Notes under the pieces: model-generated
Databases searched by the model: none
What the model saw: only the letters and a program-made list of their open reading frames with translations
Told to the model about the DNA's origin: nothing
From: an uncultured Planctomycetia bacterium
GTDB taxonomy: Bacteria; Planctomycetota; Planctomycetia; Pirellulales; Thermoguttaceae
Length of the DNA stretch: 64,000 nt
NCBI GenBank assembly: GCA_963815695.1
Contig: CAWFIG010000022.1
Span: 96,648 to 160,647 of the forward strand
Direction of reading: 5' to 3'
Shown: in pieces, positions 11,069 through 62,655 of the stretch
Layout: the number at the start of each line of letters is the position of its first letter
How positions within the stretch are numbered: position 1 is the stretch's first letter
Position numbers and translations under genes: made by a program

Positions 11069-11885
11069 CAATGATCGACTGTCAGCCCCGGAATCGCCTT
11101 CTTCAGCCGATCGATTCCCGCCGCCGTGACTTTCGTGTGGTCGACGGTCAACCGGTGAAGGTGCTTCAGGGCGGCCAGTTGTTCCAGGCCGGCGTCGCTG
11201 AGCGCCGTGTCGGCAAGCAGAAGCCAATCGAGGTTCGGAGCGGAACCAGTTTCTTCATTCCCGCGTCCGTGACTCGGTCTTGGAAAGGTTCAAGATTTTG
11301 AGGTCGCTCAACCGGGCGATGTCGTCCAGGCCCGCGTCCGACAGTTCGTGTCCGGAGAGGTGCAACGTCTGGAGATTCGTAAGCGGGCGAAGGTGGACCA
11401 GTCCCGCATCGGTGATCGGGGTGTTCGTCAGAACCAGAGAGGTCAGCACCGACAGGCCGGAGAAGATACTTCAACTGGTCGTCGGTGATATTGGAGTTTT
11501 CGGCGATGACGGTGCCGATTCGATAGAGCGGGCCGTGAGCTTGAGCGTTTCCTCGTCGACGTGCGAACCCTTGTAGTTGATGCTCGTGACTCGTTTGTCC
11601 GGCTTGTCGGGATCGGGCCTTTCGGAGATCACCAGATACTTGCCTTTGCCGTTCTTGTCCTTGAAGGCTCGAAGCTTCTCGGCGGCCTCGCGTTCGGCGG
11701 TTTTGTCGCCTGACGGCTCGGCAATGTCCCGCTGTTCATGCTGGCCTTTGTCGTTCGGGTGAGAAGAGGGCCTTCTTGATCCCCTTCCAATTCGAGAAGA
11801 CGACGAAAGCCAGCACTGCCAGCAAGCAGACTTCCACCAGCAGCGTCAACAGCCGACGATGCGCCTTGTGGTGGCGGATGGGCAT
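11069..11885 (-). CDS. membrane-anchored leucine-rich-repeat protein, apparent frameshifts
   Basis: N-terminus [30 protein letters not shown] by manual translation from 11885. LRR units in ORF 11255..11449 (LTNTPITDAGLVHLRPLTNLQTLHLSGHELSDAGLDDIARLSDLKILNLS). C-terminus ...LKKAIPGLTVDH-stop at 11069. Confidence 0.6.
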
Positions 11886-14692: not shown

Positions 14693-15950
14693 TCAGATTC
14701 CGAGCCTCTTGAACATGTCGTCGGCATTATTACAGTGCGTCAGGTTCTCGCCACGATCCGTTGCGCCGAATGTCCTTTGCGTCGTGGCGTTCGGATCGGC
14801 CAGCACTCTTTGATACAATTCTCGTAGTCTAGCGGTCATGTGTTCGTGGCGAAACACGTCGGTGAAGCGGCGGCGGCCTTCCTGGCCGAGGCGATCGCGC
14901 ATGGCGGGATCGGCGGCGAGCAATTTTAGCTTCTCGGCCAGCGCGTCGACGTCGCGGGGCGGAATCAGGAAACCGGTCTCGTCGGAAATGACCACCTCGC
15001 GGGCGCCGTCGACGTCGTAGCTGACCGCCGGCTTGCCGGAAATCAACGCCTGGGGCAGAACCCGGGCGAGCCCTTCGCGCAGACTGGCGTGAACCACGAT
15101 GTCCATCGCGGCGATCAGTTCGGGGATTCGCTCGGGCGGGACCAGGCCGGTGAACTGGAAATAGTCGGTCAGCCCGGCCGCGGCGATCTGCTGCCGCAAG
15201 CCGGTCGCGAAAGATGCCGTCGCCGACGAAGAGGAAACGGACGTTCGGCGCCGCGTCGATCACGCCGCGGGCCGCGCGAATCACGTCGTCGTGGCCCTTG
15301 AGCTTGAACAGCCGGGCGATCTTGCCGATCACGACGTGCTCGGGCCGATAGCCCAACTCGCGGCGCACGCGGTCGCGATGCTCGCCCGACTGGAGGAACG
15401 GCTCGACCTCCATGCCGCTGTAGATCGTGGTGAACTTTTCGCGCGGGGCCACGCCGGCCGAGACCATCAGATCGGTCATGGCGTCGGCCACGCTGACGAT
15501 GGCGTGGCATCGCTTCGCGGCCCAGCGTTCGCAGGCTTGAAAGAACAGCCGCGCCCCCCTGCCCTGGTACGGATGGAACGGCGCGCCGTGGACCGTGTGG
15601 ATCACGGCCGGCACGCCCAGCGACCAGGCGGCGGCGCGGCCGAGCATTCCGCCCTTGGCGCTGTGCGTATGAACCACGTCGGGCCGAAATCGCCGCAGCG
15701 ACCTTTTGAGTTGCCGATAGCTGACGGCGTCGCGCCACGGATGGATCGGCCGGCGCAGCGCGGGGATGATTTCCAGCGGCACCCCCCCTGCCCTGGCCCG
15801 ATCCAACAGACTCCCTTCCGGCCCCAGCGGCGGCCCGGTGATCAGCAGCACGTCGTCGCCGTGCTGGCGGAGCAGGTCTTCGCAGCAGAGCACGGTGTTT
15901 TCCTGTGCTCCGCCGAGGATCAGTCGCGTGATGACGTGGGCGATACGCAT
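14693..15950 (-). CDS. GT4-family glycosyltransferase, one apparent frameshift near 15200
   Basis: ORF 14829..15950 (MRIAHVITRLILGGAQENTV...HTHSAKGG...) joined to ORF 14693..15199 (FTGLVPPERIPELIAAMDIVVHASLREGLARVLPQALISGKPAVSYDVDGAREVV, the E-x7-E region). Confidence 0.85.
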
Positions 15951-15990
15951 GGACTGGCATCAACTCTGCCGAGCCGAGGACTGTTCGGGA

Positions 15991-16102
15991 GCGTTCACAG
16001 GCCGGAAACAGACGGGACGCAGGACGTTCAGCGACAGTAACCGCCGCAGGAGGCGATATGTCTCCGAAAACCTCTGCGTCCCCTTGCCGCCCAGTGAACG
16101 GT
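15991..16102 (-). repeat. MITE-like hairpin element, copy A (112 nt)
   Basis: The reverse complement aligns end to end with 40454-40568. Shared ends are ccgttcactgggcggcaaggggacg and gtctgtttccggcctgtgaacgc. Internal stem GGGACGCAG / CTGCGTCCC. Confidence 0.85.
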
Positions 16103-16227
16103 GGCCCGGTCGGACACAAACTCCATGCTAACCCATCGCGGCCGATTGTTACAGCAACCGCAGGCACGGGACGCGGCTGCAAGGAACGTTTGCCTGCCGC
16201 ACGCGTCAACCTGGGCGAATTGGTTCA

Positions 16228-16632
16228 CTACGATCGCGTCGTCCGCACGACCGGCTTGCCCGGCATGGGGGCGGGGCTGTATCTCTGAAGTTGCTGGGGC
16301 GACACATGCTGCTCTCCGGTCAGGCCGGAAACGACGCTCTGCGTCGAGATCAAGGTGTTGTACGCGTACTTCGAGCACGATGCCGATCATGCAGAGCCCG
16401 GCACAAATCACGAGCGTTCCGGTCCACGAGCGCAGCGCCTTTTGCTGTGGCGTCTCCGTGCTTTCATAGCGCGAGTAGAGCTCCATGATGGCGATCTTGA
16501 GCCGATTCCACGCGGCTCTCTCATTGGGCGGCAATTGAACGGTGTCTTAGCGGACCTCGCCAGCGCGAAGCAGATCAGTCCGGCGAAAATGCACGCGGCA
16601 AGCCCCAGGAAAAAGAACGTTGCGACAACCAT
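16228..16632 (-). CDS. hypothetical small membrane protein, frame uncertain
   Basis: MVVATFFFLGLAACIFAGLICFALA (frame of ORF 16408..16692) continues into ORF 16028..16534 (NERAAWNRLKIAIMELYSRYESTETPQQKALRSWTGTLVICAGLCMIGIVL). The 3' end is guessed. Confidence 0.3.
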
Positions 16633-16935
16633 GGATTTCTCCCAAAAGAACTGGTCCAGTTTCGGGCAACTCACGTTTCCCTCCTCCGTCAAACTTAGGT
16701 TACGCTAGAAGGGAGGCGGGTTTGGATGCGACGAAAATGTCGCTATACCCCTCATCGTGGTGGCAACGAGACGGGGACCGCCACCGTGCCCCCTCTGACG
16801 GAGCGGTAGGCCTCTTGTCTGCCCGGAGCAGGCGGCAAAGGCGCGCCCCGACGCTGCCGACCGCACGGCGAGAAGCCCGATGCATCTGACAGCTCTGATT
16901 TGTCGCCATCTGCCGCTGAGTCGGCTATCTTCCGG

Positions 16936-17802
16936 TCACCGACTGGGGCTCTGTATTGGACGCTCGATCAGACAGAGCCCTTGCGGCGGGGCGGTCGGAC
17001 CGCCGAGCCGGCGATCCGCGGCACGGAGGACTTCGCCGGGCCAACTTTCCGGCCGGCTGCCGCGGCCGACTTCCACCAGCGTGCCGACGATCGCCCGGAC
17101 CATGTTGTAGAGGAACCCGTCGGCCTCGATCTCGATGGTGATGAAGTCGTTGGCGATCGGGATCGCATGTTCCCCGCGACCGCAGTCGCGGGGCGTTAAC
17201 GTCGTTCTCCATCCCTGACCCCTGACCCTCCCCCTGACCCCTGTTCCGCCCCCTCCCCTGCCCTGCCCCGCTCGACGCGAGAGTTCGAAAACCGTTCGCA
17301 CGCTGGTCTTTCGTTCGGCGCCGCTGCTCTCGAAGCTGCTGAAGTCGTGCGTGCCCAACAGCGCCGCGGCGGCGCGGCGCATGGCGTCGGCGTCGAGCCG
17401 GCCGTAAACGTAATGCCAGACGAAATGCCGGCGGAAGACGTCGCGGACCGGCCCGTCATGGATCAGGTAGCGATAGCGCTTGCGAACGGCGTCGGCGATC
17501 GGATGGAATCCATCGGGCGCTTCGGCCACGTCGAGCACGGCGACGTCGTGCGGCAGATTGGCGTTGATGGCCCGCAGCAGCACCTCGGGCGGCAGCGCCG
17601 AATCGGTGCGAAATCCGACCACCTGGCCCAGGGCATGAACGCCGGCGTCGGTCCGGCCGCTGGCCAGAATGCGGACGTGCTGGCCGGTCACTTTGGCGAT
17701 GGCGTTTTCCAGCGTTCCTGCACGGTCGGCCTGCTCCGGCTGGAACTGCCAGCCGGCGTAGGCCGTGCCGTCGTAGGCGATGGTGAGCTTGAGGGTTCGC
17801 AA
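16936..17802 (-). CDS. truA: tRNA pseudouridine(38-40) synthase with a repeat-derived Gly/Arg-rich insertion
   Basis: Intact 288-aa ORF, TTG start. Contains KLTIAYDGTAYAGWQ, SGRTDAGVHALGQV and EADGFLYNMVRAIVGTL. Extra segment AGQGRGGGGTGVRGRVRGQGWRTT is encoded by 17213-17268. Confidence 0.9.
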   Translation of the reverse strand: MRTLKLTIAYDGTAYAGWQFQPEQADRAGTLENAIAKVTGQHVRILASGRTDAGVHALGQVVGFRTDSALPPEVLLRAINANLPHDVAVLDVAEAPDGFHPIADAVRKRYRYLIHDGPVRDVFRRHFVWHYVYGRLDADAMRRAAAALLGTHDFSSFESSGAERKTSVRTVFELSRRAGQGRGGGGTGVRGRVRGQGWRTTLTPRDCGRGEHAIPIANDFITIEIEADGFLYNMVRAIVGTLVEVGRGSRPESWPGEVLRAADRRLGGPTAPPQGLCLIERPIQSPSR

Positions 17803-26381: not shown

Positions 26382-26459
26382 CGGAGACGCTACCGCGGGA
26401 CGTTGGCCCCCGGCTATTCTTCAATCAACAATCTGTAATCAACAATCTATCCTCCTGCC

Positions 26460-37643: not shown

Positions 37644-37986
37644 AGAAGTGATTAATCGCCACAGAGGCACGGAGGCCACGGGTGAAGGACGAAGAACGGT
37701 CAAGAAGAACAGCCGGGGGCCAACGGCCCGCGGAGGAACTGCCCAATCGTCTCCGGGCCGTGAACGGACGCTAGTTCCTCGCGCTTCGTCGTCTGCCGAT
37801 CCGTCGCCCCCTCCCCTGCCCTGCCCTCCCCGTTCTTGGCAGCTGACGTCCTTCTGCTTCGCGAAGCTCGGACAAACAACAGACCGACCGAGGTGAGCCA
37901 GATTGCCAGAGCGATGCAGTTGCGCCCGGTTCAAATGTCGCTCCTTTTTCGATAGTGATGGAGAGTAGCTGTCGCCCTCGAGTATG

Positions 37987-38965: not shown

Positions 38966-39236
38966 GCTCCACCGGCCCCGTGCCGGTGGACAGACGATTG
39001 GCCACTACCGAGGGCTTGCACAACTCCACGTCGCTCCACCGGCCCTGTGCCGGTGGGCGAAACGATTGGCCGCTTCCACGCCCGGCCCGCACAATCATTC
39101 GCTCCACCGGCGCGGGGCCGGTGGGGGCGATGACGCGAGACCTTTGCGGCTGTAGTGGCCAATCATTCGCTCCGCCGACGCGGTGTCGGCGGGGGCGGAG
39201 CGTTGCAACGAAAACCGTATCATTGGCCCGCTCCCC
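38966..39236. repeat. tandem array of four 67-68-bp units, each with an 8-bp-stem hairpin
   Basis: Units start at 38966, 39033, 39101 and 39169. Each begins GCTCCACCGGC-N5-GCCGGTGG. Unit 4 has CCGCCGAC-gcggt-GTCGGCGG, i.e. two compensatory base-pair changes. Confidence 0.85.
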
Positions 39237-39268: not shown

Positions 39269-40374
39269 CTATTCTTGCTGTTCTGTCTGCGTTTGTCCAG
39301 GTTCGTCTGCGGTCCCCTGCCCTGCCCTTACGGCGGCGAGGTTTGCGGTGAGCCGTTTTCCGCTTCGCCAAGCGCGGGACATCAGCAGGCTGACGGCCCC
39401 CAGCCATATAGCTAAGGCAATGCAGTTCGCCCAGTCCGGTTTCGGGGACTCAATCGCCTCGTGTTCGGCGCGTTCGTCGGGAAAGGGATCTTGATAGTCC
39501 GCTCTACCGATTCGCAAACGCTCCGAAAGGACATGCTTCGGGATATGTCCGAAATCAAGACACTCTGCATGTCCGTCTGCAAATATGGCATTGGAGTATG
39601 GGTTGACATGCGGAGTGGCGTTAAAGAAGGCCTTCGGGCCGACGTGCTGGCACGAGATCCTCAGCGGCGACGTAGAACTCCCCGCTCCAACCAAAGTCGC
39701 GACGTCGAGATCTCTGGGCTCGGTCCATCGGATGCCGGCGTGGGCGACTTCGACCAGCAGGATCGTCTTGTCCGCCGGGGCGAGATCAGCGGTCTTGTTC
39801 GCTTTCTCTCCCGCCCAAGCCGCATCAGGGCCGACCACCGCGACATAGCTCGTCAGAGCATCTTCCGACGACGGTGCCGATTCGGCGCCAGGGCAGATAA
39901 ACACGTCGGGACGAGCCGCCAACAACTTCCTGTTGTTCGGGCCGTCCCAAGGCTCATCAAATGAATATCGCTTGTACAGAGAATGGTACCCCAGGTACGG
40001 CAAAATCAGAACTCGCCAGCTATGCGCGGATGCCCATTCTTGCCGGCAACAAACGCCGGCGGGTAACAACCGTTCGCTGTCTCATATTGCCGTAGTGCCA
40101 GGGAGATCTGCTTTAGATGATTGATACACTCACACCGCCGAGCTTGCTGGGCGAATCGGAATTCATTGCGAACCGGCAGCACGACGGCAAAGGTGAAGAT
40201 GACCATTAGCGTGGCCAGAGCCGCACACCAGCCAAATGCCGCCCACGACCGTGCAATCCCAATCGCCAGCGCAAGGATCGGAAAAAAGACGAGAAGCCCC
40301 CCCAGACCGAACACCGCCAGCGACGACCAGAGCACCACAAACAGGAGCAGGAGCGTGCTCAGGCAAAATTGCAT
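39269..40374 (-). CDS. DUF1559-like protein with atypical multi-TM N-terminus (paralog 2), one apparent frameshift near 40040
   Basis: ORF 40006..40374 (MQFCLSTLLLLFVVLWSSLAVFGLGGLLVFFPILALAIGIA...RRCECINHLKQISLALRQYETANGCYPPAFV) joined to ORF 39269..40069 (HSWRVLILPYLGYHSLYKRYSFDEPWDGPNNRKLL...IFADGHAECL...). C-terminal TM helix. Confidence 0.7.
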
Positions 40375-40453
40375 GACGGGTAACTCCTTCCGCGGGCCGT
40401 TGACGCCCGGCTATTGTTCTTGATTCACCCGCGTTTGTTATGCCCTGCGGTAA

Positions 40454-40568
40454 CCGTTCACTGGGCGGCAAGGGGACGGAGGAGGTTTTCGGAGAAATAT
40501 CTCCTCCTGCGGCGGATACTGTCGCCGAAAACCTCCTCCGTCCCCCTCTGTTTCCGGCCTGTGAACGC
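40454..40568 (+). repeat. MITE-like hairpin element, copy B (115 nt)
   Basis: Perfect 21-bp internal stem ggggacggaggaggttttcgg / ccgaaaacctcctccgtcccc. Outer inverted ends cgttcac / gtgaacg. Aligns with the reverse complement of 15991-16102. Confidence 0.85.
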
Positions 40569-40621
40569 TTGCTGCCCTGCGACGTATTGTCCTTCGTGTT
40601 CTTCGTGTCCTTCGTGGATCG

Positions 40622-41851
40622 CTATGGTACGAGTCGGGCGTCGAGCCAGTCGGCGTGGTCGAGGACGTCGGCGCGGTCGGCGTAATCGACTAGTAGTTCT
40701 AGCTTCTTCGCGCCGCGAACATCGACGGAAACCGGCAGCGGGGCGTCGCCGCCGCGGACGATTGGACTGGTGAAACGTTCCTGGCCATCGACCAGGACGC
40801 GGAAGATCACGCTGCCGCGGCCTGGCGGTCGAGTCGTCGATGCCGACCTTGGCCTCGAAACGATGGAAACGACTTGGAAATTTCGGAGACTTGGGGATCC
40901 GCAGCCTCTGACCCCTGACCCCTGACCCCTGACCCCTCAGCTGCCCTTACCCCCTGCCCCTCTCCCACCGGCGGAAGAGGGGAGATTGTGTAGACCAGCC
41001 GGGCGGCGCTGTGAACGCCGAGGCCTTTCAGATAAAGCTGGCCGCTCGCAGCGGAGCATGCCGCCGGTGACGTTGCGGTCGCGGCGATACGGCCACGGCA
41101 GGCGAGGAACGGCGTTTGGCGATACTCGGCCGGCTTGAGGTCGGAGAGATAGACGGCGCGGCCGCCAGCGGTTGAAGGAAGACGAGCGGCGAGCGCTTGG
41201 CCCGTAAGCGTTTGGCCGGCGGCCGTGATTTTCAGCGAATCGCCTTCGAGCAACAATTCCGTGGCCAACAGCCGGCTGCCGTCGCTGAAGCCTGCCCAGA
41301 CTCGCAGCGAGTCGGGCTTGACGGCCAGTTTTCGCCGCAAGGCGGGGTTGAAGAGGATGGCCGTGATGCGGTCGGTCTTGACTTCGGACCGGCGCCGGCG
41401 TCGGTCTTCAACGTGACGGCGTCGTCGGCGATGCCCTCGAAGAGGCCGGCAAGCTCGTCGCCGTTGTCCAACAGCAGGCGGTCGGAGTCTCCGGCGGCGT
41501 TGGAGAGGCGATCGAGCAATAAGTCGTGCTGCTGGCGGTCGGACAGGCGCGAAGGACGATGCCGGCCAGCACGTCGAGCGGCAGCTTCAGCGTTCCGAAC
41601 AGATCGGAATCGGCGGTGAGCCGGTCCTTGTCGGCGGCGACCACCTCGGCCGTCAAGCAGGCTGCCGTCGGCCAAGACGAGCCCCCCTGCCCTGCCCTGC
41701 TCCGGGCATTGTCCCCAGCGGACCAGATCGGCCGCCGGCATGGTGCGTCGCTCGTTGCCGACGGCGAAGGTGAGTTGCCAGTTGGGCGTCGACGGCGACC
41801 AGCTTCGCCGCGGAACGGCTCGCCGTCGACGGGAACGGCCACGGGGCGCAT
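40622..41851 (-). CDS. NPCBM/NEW2-domain protein, frameshifted and carrying a repeat insertion
   Basis: C-terminal ORF 40622..40810 (IFRVLVDGQERFTSPIVRGGDAPLPVSVDVRGAKKLELLVDYADRADVLDHADWLDARLV). Upstream fragments 40807..41340 (YLKGLGVHSAARLVYT), 41232..41906 and 41408..42025. Start MRPVAVPVDGEPF at 41851. Confidence 0.6.
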
Positions 41852-41871
41852 CGGCGCGGACAGAGGGAAGC

Positions 41872-41962
41872 AATGCAAAATGCAAATTGAAAAATGCAAA
41901 ATGCAAATCTGAAATTCGAAATTGGAGATTTCAAATTCGAAATTGAAGATTTGAGATTGAAG
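41872..41962. repeat. AT-rich heptamer tandem array, 13 units in perfect register
   Basis: aatgcaa aatgcaa attgaaa aatgcaa aatgcaa atctgaa attcgaa attggag atttcaa attcgaa attgaag atttgag attgaag (91 nt = 13 x 7). Confidence 0.95.
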
Positions 41963-41993: not shown

Positions 41994-42035
41994 GCCCTCT
42001 CCCCTCTCCCCTCTCCCCTCTCCACTACCCTACCG
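41994..42035. repeat. C-rich heptamer array (GCCCTCT, CCCCTCT x3, CCACTAC, CCTACCG)
   Basis: Counted directly. Overlaps the stop codon (42030-42032) of the prenyltransferase-repeat gene. Confidence 0.9.
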
Positions 42036-43065
42036 CTGAAAAATCGGCAGGTAGTTGTTCGGGATTTCCAGCACGATGCAGGCCATCGCGGTGGCGCAGT
42101 CGTTGCCCTCTTGGGCAGCCTGCCACGAGCCGTCGTCGCGCTGGCGGGCGATCAATTCGTCGCGGACGGCCGGATACCAGCGGTCGAAGCGCTCGCCGCC
42201 GGCCTGCCACATCGCCTGCACGGCGTAGTAATGGCCGTAGAAGAAGTAGCTTTCGCGGCGGGTGACGCCCTCGGCGGGGATGAAGTGCATCAGGTAGTCG
42301 AGCCCCTTGGCGATCTCCGGCCCCTTGTAGATGCCGGCACTGTACAGGGCGACCACGGCGGCGGCCGAGCGGGGGAAGTCGCTCTCGCCGGCGGTGGCTC
42401 AGCATGTACATGAACCCGCCGTCGGCGTTCTGGCTGCGCTTGACGTAGTCGATCGAGCGGTCGATCGTCTCGTTGGGAACGTAGAGGCCGGCGTTGCGGG
42501 CCGCTCGCAGGGCCATGACCTGGCAGACGGTGACCGAGATGTCGGCGTCGCTGCGGACCGGCTGGTAGCGCCAGCCGCCCTGCTTGTTCTGGCTGTTGAC
42601 GATGATCTTGACGGCCTTCGACAGCTTGTCGCGCAGCTCGGGCCGCGGCGACATGCCGTAACACTCGGCCAGGAACATCGTGGCGAAGCCGTGGCCGTAC
42701 ATCGGGCCGTGAGCTCGCGTCGGGGCCACAGATGAACCCGCTCGGCTGCGTGTTGGCCAGCAGATAATCGACGCAGCGGTTCACCTGTGCGCCGTACGGG
42801 CCGCGGCCGGGCGTGCTGCCGTCGGCCATCATCGCCATGCCGGCCAAGGCGCAGACCGCCACGTTGCCGCGGTACGAGCCGGCGCCGAAGCTGCCGTCGT
42901 CGTGCTGCTGCGACGACCAGCCATTTCAGCCCGCGCTCGATGCCGCGCTGCACGGCGGGCGTAATCAGCTTCGCCGCCGATCTTTTCGGAGTTCTTCTCT
43001 TCCGCCCCGAGCGATGCGGCGACGCCGCACAACAGAACGGCGGCGATGATTATCGAGCGATTCAT
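42030..43065 (-). CDS. prenyltransferase/squalene-oxidase-repeat (terpenoid-cyclase-fold) secreted protein, multiple apparent frameshifts
   Basis: Start MNRSIIIAAVLLCGVAASLGA (43065). Fragments: QHDDGSFG, GPMYGHGFATMFLAECYGM, NSQNKQGGWRYQP...SVTVCQVMALRAARNAG, RSQNADGGFMY and ARQRDDGSWQA (repeated QxxDGGW-type motifs). Confidence 0.7.
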
Positions 43066-49723: not shown

Positions 49724-49828
49724 GGTTAGTGGGCAGTCGGCAGTCGGCAGTGGGCAGTGGGCAGTCGGCGGTCGGCAGTCGGCAGTCGGCAGTCGGCAGT
49801 GGGTAGTGGATAGTGGGTAGTGGGTAGT
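49724..49828. repeat. heptamer tandem array, 15 units in perfect register (consensus SGGYAGT)
   Basis: ggttagt gggcagt cggcagt cggcagt gggcagt gggcagt cggcggt cggcagt x4 gggtagt ggatagt gggtagt gggtagt (105 nt). Starts 2 nt upstream of the VWA gene ATG (49720-49722). Confidence 0.95.
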
Positions 49829-49865
49829 GCGAAACCGCAAGCGGTTGTGAAGATATGACGAAGTT

Positions 49866-49935
49866 CATCTCTCATCCCTCATCCCTAATCTCTCATCCCT
49901 CATCCCTAATCTCTCATCCCTCATCCTCTCCCCCC
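49866..49935. repeat. C-rich heptamer array, ~10 units with a 21-nt super-period (CATCCCT CATCCCT AATCTCT)
   Basis: Counted directly. Overlaps the 3' end and stop region of the BatA-like gene. Confidence 0.95.
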
Positions 49936-59101: not shown

Positions 59102-59222
59102 GGCTTCAGTCTCCCTGAAAATGAGTAGAGCGTTGGTTTCGGCTGTTGTTTCAAACACGCGGTGTCTGCGGCGTGGGCGGGGCTAGTGATTGGCCAAGCG
59201 GCAGTCGACCGCCTTGGCGTCT

Positions 59223-59351
59223 CACCCAGTAGGTCCCGCCTGCCGGGCGGGACTTGTGTGCGTACCGTCTCGAGAAGTCCCGCCTGCCGGGCGGGACTTG
59301 CGTGCATACCGTTTCGAGAAGTCCCGCCCGGCAGGCGGGACCTACTGGGTG
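59223..59351. repeat. REP-like palindrome cluster (three GTCCCGCC-N5-GGCGGGAC hairpins inside a larger palindrome)
   Basis: Hairpins at 59233-59253, 59277-59297 and 59321-59341 (the third is the exact inverted form). Two ~44-bp direct repeats. Outer arms cacccagtag / ctactgggtg. Confidence 0.9.
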
Positions 59352-59588
59352 AACGGTGCCCGCGGCGCCGGCCAAGTACAATTTGGCAGTCCACCAGCAT
59401 TATGACGACCATCGAGACAAAATAGTTTCACCCCCCCCGTCGGTGGCGTTGCCGGGGCCGTATTTTCCTTTTTCTCGCCCCCGCGGTAGAATCTGGTGGT
59501 TGTCCCGCCTGGAAGGCGGAACGGAAATTCCTCCGTTCCGCGGCCTTTGTCAGTCTTGCCCATTGCGCACCCACAGATTGGAGAACCG

Positions 59589-62556: not shown

Positions 62557-62586
62557 AGTCAAGGCAGTCGCCACGGCGGTTTTGCA

Positions 62587-62655
62587 GTAGGTCCCGCTTG
62601 CCGAGCGGGACTTCCGCCTTCCACGTCCCGGTCCCGCTCGGTAAGCGGGACCTAC
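62587..62655. repeat. REP-like palindrome pair of the same family as 59223-59351
   Basis: gtag-GTCCCGCttgccgaGCGGGAC (62591-62611) and GTCCCGCtcggtaaGCGGGAC-ctac (62631-62651). Confidence 0.85.

Follow-up and report, generated by a model that had tools for sequence, protein, structure and literature searches.

A palindromic element with 12-bp inverted ends in a planctomycete genome is very probably a MITE, moved in trans most likely by a transposase of the ISBst12 type

Among the small repeats of bacterial genomes, REPs are 20-40 nt long, carry no terminal inverted repeats (TIRs) of the type described here, generate no target duplications and depend on RAYT, while the Correia elements duplicate TA. 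Bacterial MITEs are defined as short, non-coding, multi-copy elements that are bounded by TIRs, flanked by target-site duplications (TSDs) and dependent in trans on a transposase; for one of them, MITEPsy1 of Pseudomonas syringae, the duplication measures 4 nt and an IS5-family element is the probable source (PMC3189936). Members of the IS66 family have ends that start with GTAAGCG and generate 8-bp target duplications (PMC11946415), and ISDge4, which belongs to the single-ORF ISBst12 group, has the ends GTGACTACTCAGCA and GTAACTGCTCAGCA and an 8-bp duplication (PMC12898284).

Here we analyse a hairpin that occurs twice in the window, the 64-kb stretch of DNA under study, and conclude with high confidence that it is a MITE; the transposase that moves it in trans is most likely ISBst12-like. 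Like MITEPsy1 and the Correia (NEMIS) elements of Neisseria it is mostly intergenic and hairpin-forming, but it differs from them in its likely parent family, in its TSD and in its host phylum (Planctomycetota). As in REP/BIME and ERIC sequences, its copies are imperfect palindromes that lie between genes, whereas its TIRs and TSDs set it apart from REPs, which have neither TSDs nor DDE-type TIRs. To our knowledge, no MITE family with these ends has been described in Planctomycetota, and we know of few described MITE derivatives of ISBst12-type IS66 transposases; a literature search found no paper containing this TIR string.

The original prediction placed a 115-nt hairpin at two positions of the window, in copies judged by eye to be about 88% identical. 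Both copies are present at those places, but on each side they extend 4-5 nt beyond the predicted bounds, the 12-bp TIRs having been counted partly as flank. The two copies and their parts are the following.

40450-40572, plus strand: MITE copy B, 123 bp, non-coding, a long imperfect palindrome, with bounds taken from the TIRs and the TSD
40450-40461, plus strand: left TIR of copy B, GTAACCGTTCAC, equal to the family consensus
40561-40572, plus strand: right TIR of copy B, GTGAACGCTTGC, with 2 mismatches against the consensus GTGAACGGTTAC
40441-40449, strand not applicable: left TSD of copy B, TGCCCTGCG, 9/9 identical to 40573-40581
40573-40581, strand not applicable: right TSD of copy B, TGCCCTGCG, 9/9 identical to 40441-40449
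15987-16105, minus strand: MITE copy A, 119 bp, decayed and in the opposite orientation, its ends carrying 2-3 mismatches
16094-16105, read on the minus strand: TIR remnant of copy A, GCCACCGTTCAC
15987-15998, read on the minus strand: TIR remnant of copy A, GTGAACGCTCCC

In an alignment of the elements only, copies A and B differ at 16 of 123 columns (~87% identity), and their similarity ends exactly at the TIRs. The terminal 24-mer on the left and the 21-mer on the right each occur exactly twice in the window, compared to no occurrence in shuffled sequences. The open reading frames that run across the elements are long, spurious frames of high G+C content with no Pfam support. A direct repeat flanking copy B, which the original prediction had missed, measures 9 bp against the 8 bp usual in the family, although single-base features such as this one and the indels between A and B are uncertain because many genes of the window are frameshifted. 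On the other hand, no TSD was recognisable around copy A at several assumed boundaries (0/8 positions at the nominal bounds), and the best candidate, which matches at ~6/8 positions by eye with one end shifted by 2 nt, is unconvincing. As its ends are decayed, its duplication lost and its stem weakened, copy A looks like the older insertion, and copy B like a younger or better preserved one.

When metagenomes were scanned with the right-end 18-mer, 8 loci emerged with elements of 106-145 bp bounded by GTAACCGTTCAC and GTGAACGGTTAC, the perfect 12-bp TIR of the family consensus, and more copies were found within the same loci. These elements share the subterminal sequence of the window element (…GGCAAGGGGAC…, TTTTCGG-loop-CCGAAAA, …GTTTCCGGCCT) and carry additional or different internal modules with respect to the window copies. 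Many members in L031, L032, L036, L039, L045 and L049 contain an extra module, GGGGACTGTCCC-GATTTTCGCGG-CGAAGT-CCGCGAAAAT-GGGACTGTCCCC, a nested palindrome that is absent from the window copies, and in L032 one family element is inserted inside another. Further elements, of 124-201 bp, were detected by scanning viral contigs with the TIR; their TIRs are identical, their interiors are unrelated, and their G+C content ranges from about 32 to 62%. Over all TIR-bounded elements the two flanks matched at 8/8 positions in ten cases, at 7/8 in four and at 6/8 in two, with a perfect 9/9 duplication in two elements, window copy B among them, compared to 0-3 matching positions, and one case of 5, when the flanks were shifted by 12 nt as a control. 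Judged against this control, the match counts are what characterises DDE-type transposition in which the cut is staggered by 8, occasionally 9, bp.

As for copy number, a related organism holds ~7 distinct family copies in ~45 kb of contigs, and in the source organism two copies are visible within the 64-kb window. In a scan of the genome collection with the left-end 18-mer, all matches were due to chance or to coding sequence (a GSLGGK peptide motif). The original prediction had named, as an outcome speaking against mobility, that just these two copies might exist and without flanking duplications; instead, the TSD of copy B is perfect and the family is multi-copy elsewhere.

Among the viral-classed sequences, the IMG/VR contigs L090, L091, L118, L119 and L126 bear MITEs whose 12-bp TIR is identical and whose 8-9-bp TSDs are perfect, and one MITE-bearing contig of this class has a G+C content of 39%. 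Either phages carry MITEs or these contigs are misclassified host DNA.

The ends of ISBst12-group elements that were examined directly conform to GTAACnnTTyAG, are accompanied by 8-bp duplications and lie at most 3 substitutions away from the MITE ends. The insertion sequences (ISs) considered, including 3-ORF IS66 elements, are listed below.

Geobacillus plasmid pHTA426: ISBst12-type IS, ends GTATCTATTCAGCC / GTAACTATTCAGCC, TSD GACGAGTT
L135 and L136: two 3-ORF IS66 elements, ends GTGAGCTTACGG, TSD of 8 bp
L053, 16284-17797: single-ORF IS66-like IS with one frameshift, ends GTAACAGAATAGCC / GTAAGACTTTAGCC, no clear TSD
L150/L151: IS with end GTAACTATTTAG, TSD TAAAATCG
IS carrying P0250: left end GTAACACTTTAG
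IS carrying P0276: left end GTAACTCTTTAG, TSD GCAATTAG
IS carrying P0323: left end GTAACACTTCAG
IS carrying P0282: left end GTAACAGTTTAG
IS carrying P0338: left end GTAACAAATCAG

ISBst12-like transposases are present in L053, the closest relative of the window organism, whose IS at 16284-17797 is 1.5 kb long, has GTAAC/GTAAG-type ends and shows the end GTAACAGAATAG. Metagenomes contain a very large number of homologues of the L053 transposase, and the IS ends of six of these homologues were taken from several independent contigs. An initial GTAA is found in the MITE end and in the directly read IS ends GTAACTATTCAG, GTAACACTTCAG, GTAACAGTTTAG, GTAACAAATCAG and GTAACTATTTAG. IS duplications of 8 bp were observed in L137, L138, L150 and L157, and the L135 and L136 elements of the 3-ORF IS66 type show the same length. 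The same L053 locus holds a truncated member of the MITE family (11250-11321), directly after the stop codon of a family-4 glycosyltransferase (GT4) gene, and the IS lies ~5 kb beyond it.

The comparison of the MITE with the ISBst12 group (the pHTA426 IS, ISDge4, and the planctomycete-type ISs with P0250, P0255, P0282, P0323 and P0338) reveals a common end template, GTAACnnTTyA(G/C), 8-bp target duplications made by both, and Thermoguttaceae-type hosts for both; a MITE variant from L041, GTAACTATTCAC, is identical to the pHTA426 ISBst12-type end at 11 of 12 positions. The ISs are ~1.5-1.65 kb long and contain a transposase gene, whereas the MITE has 123 bp, no transposase gene and a palindromic interior unrelated to theirs, and position 12 of the end is C in the MITE and G in the IS. 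Since GTAACCGTTCAC fits the end template and is 9/12 identical to the ends of the P0323 and P0282 elements, a derivation of the MITE from an ISBst12-type IS66 element, and its mobilisation by such a transposase, appear well supported by these end sequences, and we infer that this mobilisation would take place in trans.

No autonomous IS with exact GTAACCGTTCAC ends was found among the loci, viral contigs and transposase clusters examined. In tblastn searches with two IS66 queries, one of the 3-ORF type and one of the Geobacillus ISBst12 type, no IS66-family transposase was detected in the 64-kb window, and among all the examined loci only L053 and L054 matched. Scans of viral-contig proteins for an autonomous partner gave nothing, or only Geobacillus-like elements. 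Several candidates for the partner were discarded: long-range TIR pairs in viral contigs enclose phage-like genes and no transposases, the six transposase clusters all have GTAAC-type ends of which none is identical to that of the MITE, and the IS66 element of L054 has different ends (CCGTGTCCTTGCGGCA).

The elements are non-coding units of ~120 bp defined by 12-bp TIRs around a palindromic interior, and they fold as a long hairpin on either strand because that interior is itself palindromic. According to the proposed mechanism, a transposase encoded elsewhere in the genome, most likely an IS66-family enzyme of the single-ORF ISBst12 group to judge from the ends, would bind both ends and excise or copy the element. 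The element would then be inserted where the target is cut with a stagger of 8 (sometimes 9) bp, and the flanking direct repeat would arise when this cut is repaired. A broader proposal is that the GTAACCGTTCAC end defines a widespread, possibly active superfamily of ISBst12-derived MITEs, spanning element G+C contents of 32-62% and including some viral-classed contigs, in which the interiors turn over completely while the ends stay fixed. In that case the hairpin may be selected, because it serves transposition or influences nearby genes, and would not be an accident of the origin of the element. We regard this proposal as speculative and rather improbable.

The genes around the two copies encode GT4, TruA, an NPCBM-domain protein and DUF1559 proteins, and their closest database relatives are from Thermoguttaceae/Pirellulales MAGs (Planctomycetota), the best GT4 match being 92% identical. 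Copy A is located 36 nt upstream of the GT4 start (15950) and copy B 75 nt upstream of a DUF1559 start (40374), each between genes of the same strand. The original prediction that both copies precede minus-strand starts agrees with the orthologue alignments, which confirm these two starts, and the copies are indeed oppositely oriented relative to their downstream genes.

Orthologous regions of relatives were compared at both sites. Copy A is absent from L053, L054 and L055, where the order truA - small ORF - GT4 is kept, GT4 shares 90-92% amino-acid identity, and the region upstream of the GT4 start aligns to the window except for a clean ~120-nt gap exactly at the place of copy A. Copy B is absent from L132 and L133, in which the order prenyltransferase-like gene - NPCBM - DUF1559 is kept and the NPCBM-DUF1559 spacer measures 125-128 bp versus 247 bp in the window. 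This difference corresponds to the element plus TSD within ~10 bp, and deleting the element and one copy of TGCCCTGCG from the window restores a colinear alignment with L132 and L133. Because the relatives keep the gene neighbourhoods yet are without the element at both sites, both copies are insertions in the lineage of the window. The original prediction had leaned towards a mobile miniature element and away from a classical leader, and the TIRs, the TSD, the empty orthologous sites and the wide family with the same ends bear this out.

A mobile origin would be compatible with a later use by the host, in which the hairpin of the MITE acts as a transcription barrier or an mRNA-stabilising structure that separates the gene before it from the DUF1559 or GT4 gene after it, or in which the MITE supplies a promoter. 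The location of both copies between same-strand genes, at such short distances from the next start codon, would suit this role, and regulatory effects are documented for other bacterial MITEs, namely Correia elements and ERIC. However, a terminator scan revealed no terminator-like site inside either element on either strand and no U-tract after the hairpin, a promoter scan detected no sigma-70-like site inside the elements, the relatives do without the element, and the stem of copy A is decaying. We consider such co-option unlikely.

The original prediction had also offered a structured RNA with compensatory changes as an alternative, that is, a non-coding RNA or cis-regulatory leader whose hairpin is transcribed together with the downstream gene or before it and whose fold is selected via compensatory substitutions. 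The predicted folds are very stable: compared to shuffled controls, copy B reaches -72.7 kcal/mol (z -9.3) and its other strand -71.4 kcal/mol (z -8.6), with -75.2 kcal/mol over the full 123-bp element, and both copies are located in 5' intergenic regions near start codons. Copy A is weaker, with -58.4 and -49.4 kcal/mol on its two strands (z -5.1 and -3.8), a loss of 14-22 kcal/mol. When the minimum-energy structure of copy B (49 pairs) was projected onto copy A, 40 stem pairs were unchanged, one was compensatory, four were broken by substitutions and four by indels, a comparison of two sequences with low statistical power. The compensatory pair, G-C to C-G at alignment columns 30/89, is genuine, as had been claimed, but the accompanying claim that the stem is kept paired in copy A does not hold, since eight pairs are disrupted through substitutions and indels. 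The two copies differ at a similar rate in paired columns (12/98, 12%) and in unpaired ones (4/25, 16%).

No match at gathering score was obtained in the window with Rfam, and at E-values up to 1 the only hits were sub-threshold, generic models of eukaryotic or viral miRNA-precursor hairpins, with no bacterial family. In addition, the copies point opposite ways relative to their genes, the orthologous leaders of the relatives are entirely without the element, TIRs and TSDs are foreign to RNA genes, and the members of the family have common ends and not a common interior. Given the stem differences, the lack of Rfam, terminator or promoter matches, the opposite orientations and the absence in relatives, it is very unlikely that an RNA structure is under selection here. 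The hairpin comes about as a by-product of the inverted-repeat build of a transposon, and the element, which belongs to an undescribed family of ordinary selfish DNA, is no structured RNA gene.

Another way of accounting for an intergenic, palindromic and repeated element, in a window with several other small palindromic repeat families, would be a REP/BIME-like palindrome spread by RAYT (TnpA-REP, a Y1 HUH enzyme) or by a different system that recognises hairpins, and not by a DDE transposase. We give this explanation very little credence, as 8-9-bp duplications flank most copies and the ends match those of the ISBst12-group DDE elements.

Frame changes affect several genes near the MITE copies, as follows.

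14693-15950: GT4 gene, split over at least 2 frames
39269-40374: DUF1559 gene, split over at least 2 frames
40622-41900: NPCBM gene, with at least 5 frame changes
42025-42950: prenyltransferase-like gene, split over at least 2 frames

These frameshifts suggest either an indel-prone (long-read) assembly or a decaying genome undergoing pseudogenisation. An error-prone assembly would leave room for the two copies to be an artefact, or else a non-mobile segmental duplication, but the chance of this is negligible, as the A/B similarity stops exactly at the TIRs, the orthologous sites are cleanly empty and, refuting this explanation, independent metagenomes and viral contigs hold family members with the same ends and TSDs.

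The window contains further repeats. A 148-nt near-perfect palindrome at 59213-59360 (DNA fold -68 kcal/mol, z -14.4) consists of 44-bp units in which the hairpin GTCCCGCCTGCCGGGCGGGAC occurs; as its right end, ...GTGAACGGTGCC, shares the MITE terminal motif, this palindrome may represent a third, diverged relative of the MITE with a different interior. A hairpin pair at 62585-62655 is related to this palindrome and is without MITE-type ends. The 30-nt hairpin motif GAACAATAGCCGGGGGCCAACGGCCCGCGG occurs at 26393-26422 (minus strand), 37704-37733 (plus strand) and 40390-40419 (minus strand), three times in the window versus none expected; it is conserved at the orthologous position, just upstream of the DUF1559 start, in the relatives L132 (~11340-11375) and L133, and has a terminator-like score on the opposite strand. 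Short AT-rich tandem arrays (AATGCAAAATGCAAATCTGAAA / AAATTCGAAATTGAAGATTTC) occupy 41872-41952, in an intergenic region of otherwise 63% G+C, and very similar arrays of the GAAATTT/CAAATCT type flank ISBst12-like insertions in metagenome contigs (L145, L149, L151, L157, L158 and L162). Given that such similar arrays lie beside these insertions, arrays of this kind may be a preferred IS target. Repeats of CTGACCC / CCCTGACCCCTG at 17213-17269 and 40908-40937 lie within the coding sequences of truA and NPCBM, respectively, and correspond to Gly/Gln/Arg-rich inserts. Heptamer arrays were found at 49728-49829 and 49865-49926 (AGTGGGC/AGTCGGC ~14 times, TCATCCC ~9 times). The stretch 38966-39197, which precedes a DUF1559 paralogue, holds a 68-bp tandem repeat that includes the GC hairpin CCACCGGCnnnGnGCCGGTGG.

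As a class, MITEs are well known (PMC3189936), and this family is an undescribed one. The finding is unsurprising and changes no general principle; its use is in annotation and in insertion-sequence biology. As the hairpin is selfish DNA, annotators should not call an RNA gene, either riboswitch or small RNA, at this position. Being located 36 and 75 nt upstream of the GT4 and DUF1559 genes, the insertions may alter the expression of these genes, and they can be used as strain-level markers. The GTAACCGTTCAC ends together with the 8-9-bp duplication provide a signature for masking and tracking this MITE family in Planctomycetota and beyond, and tie it to the ISBst12-type IS66 transposases.
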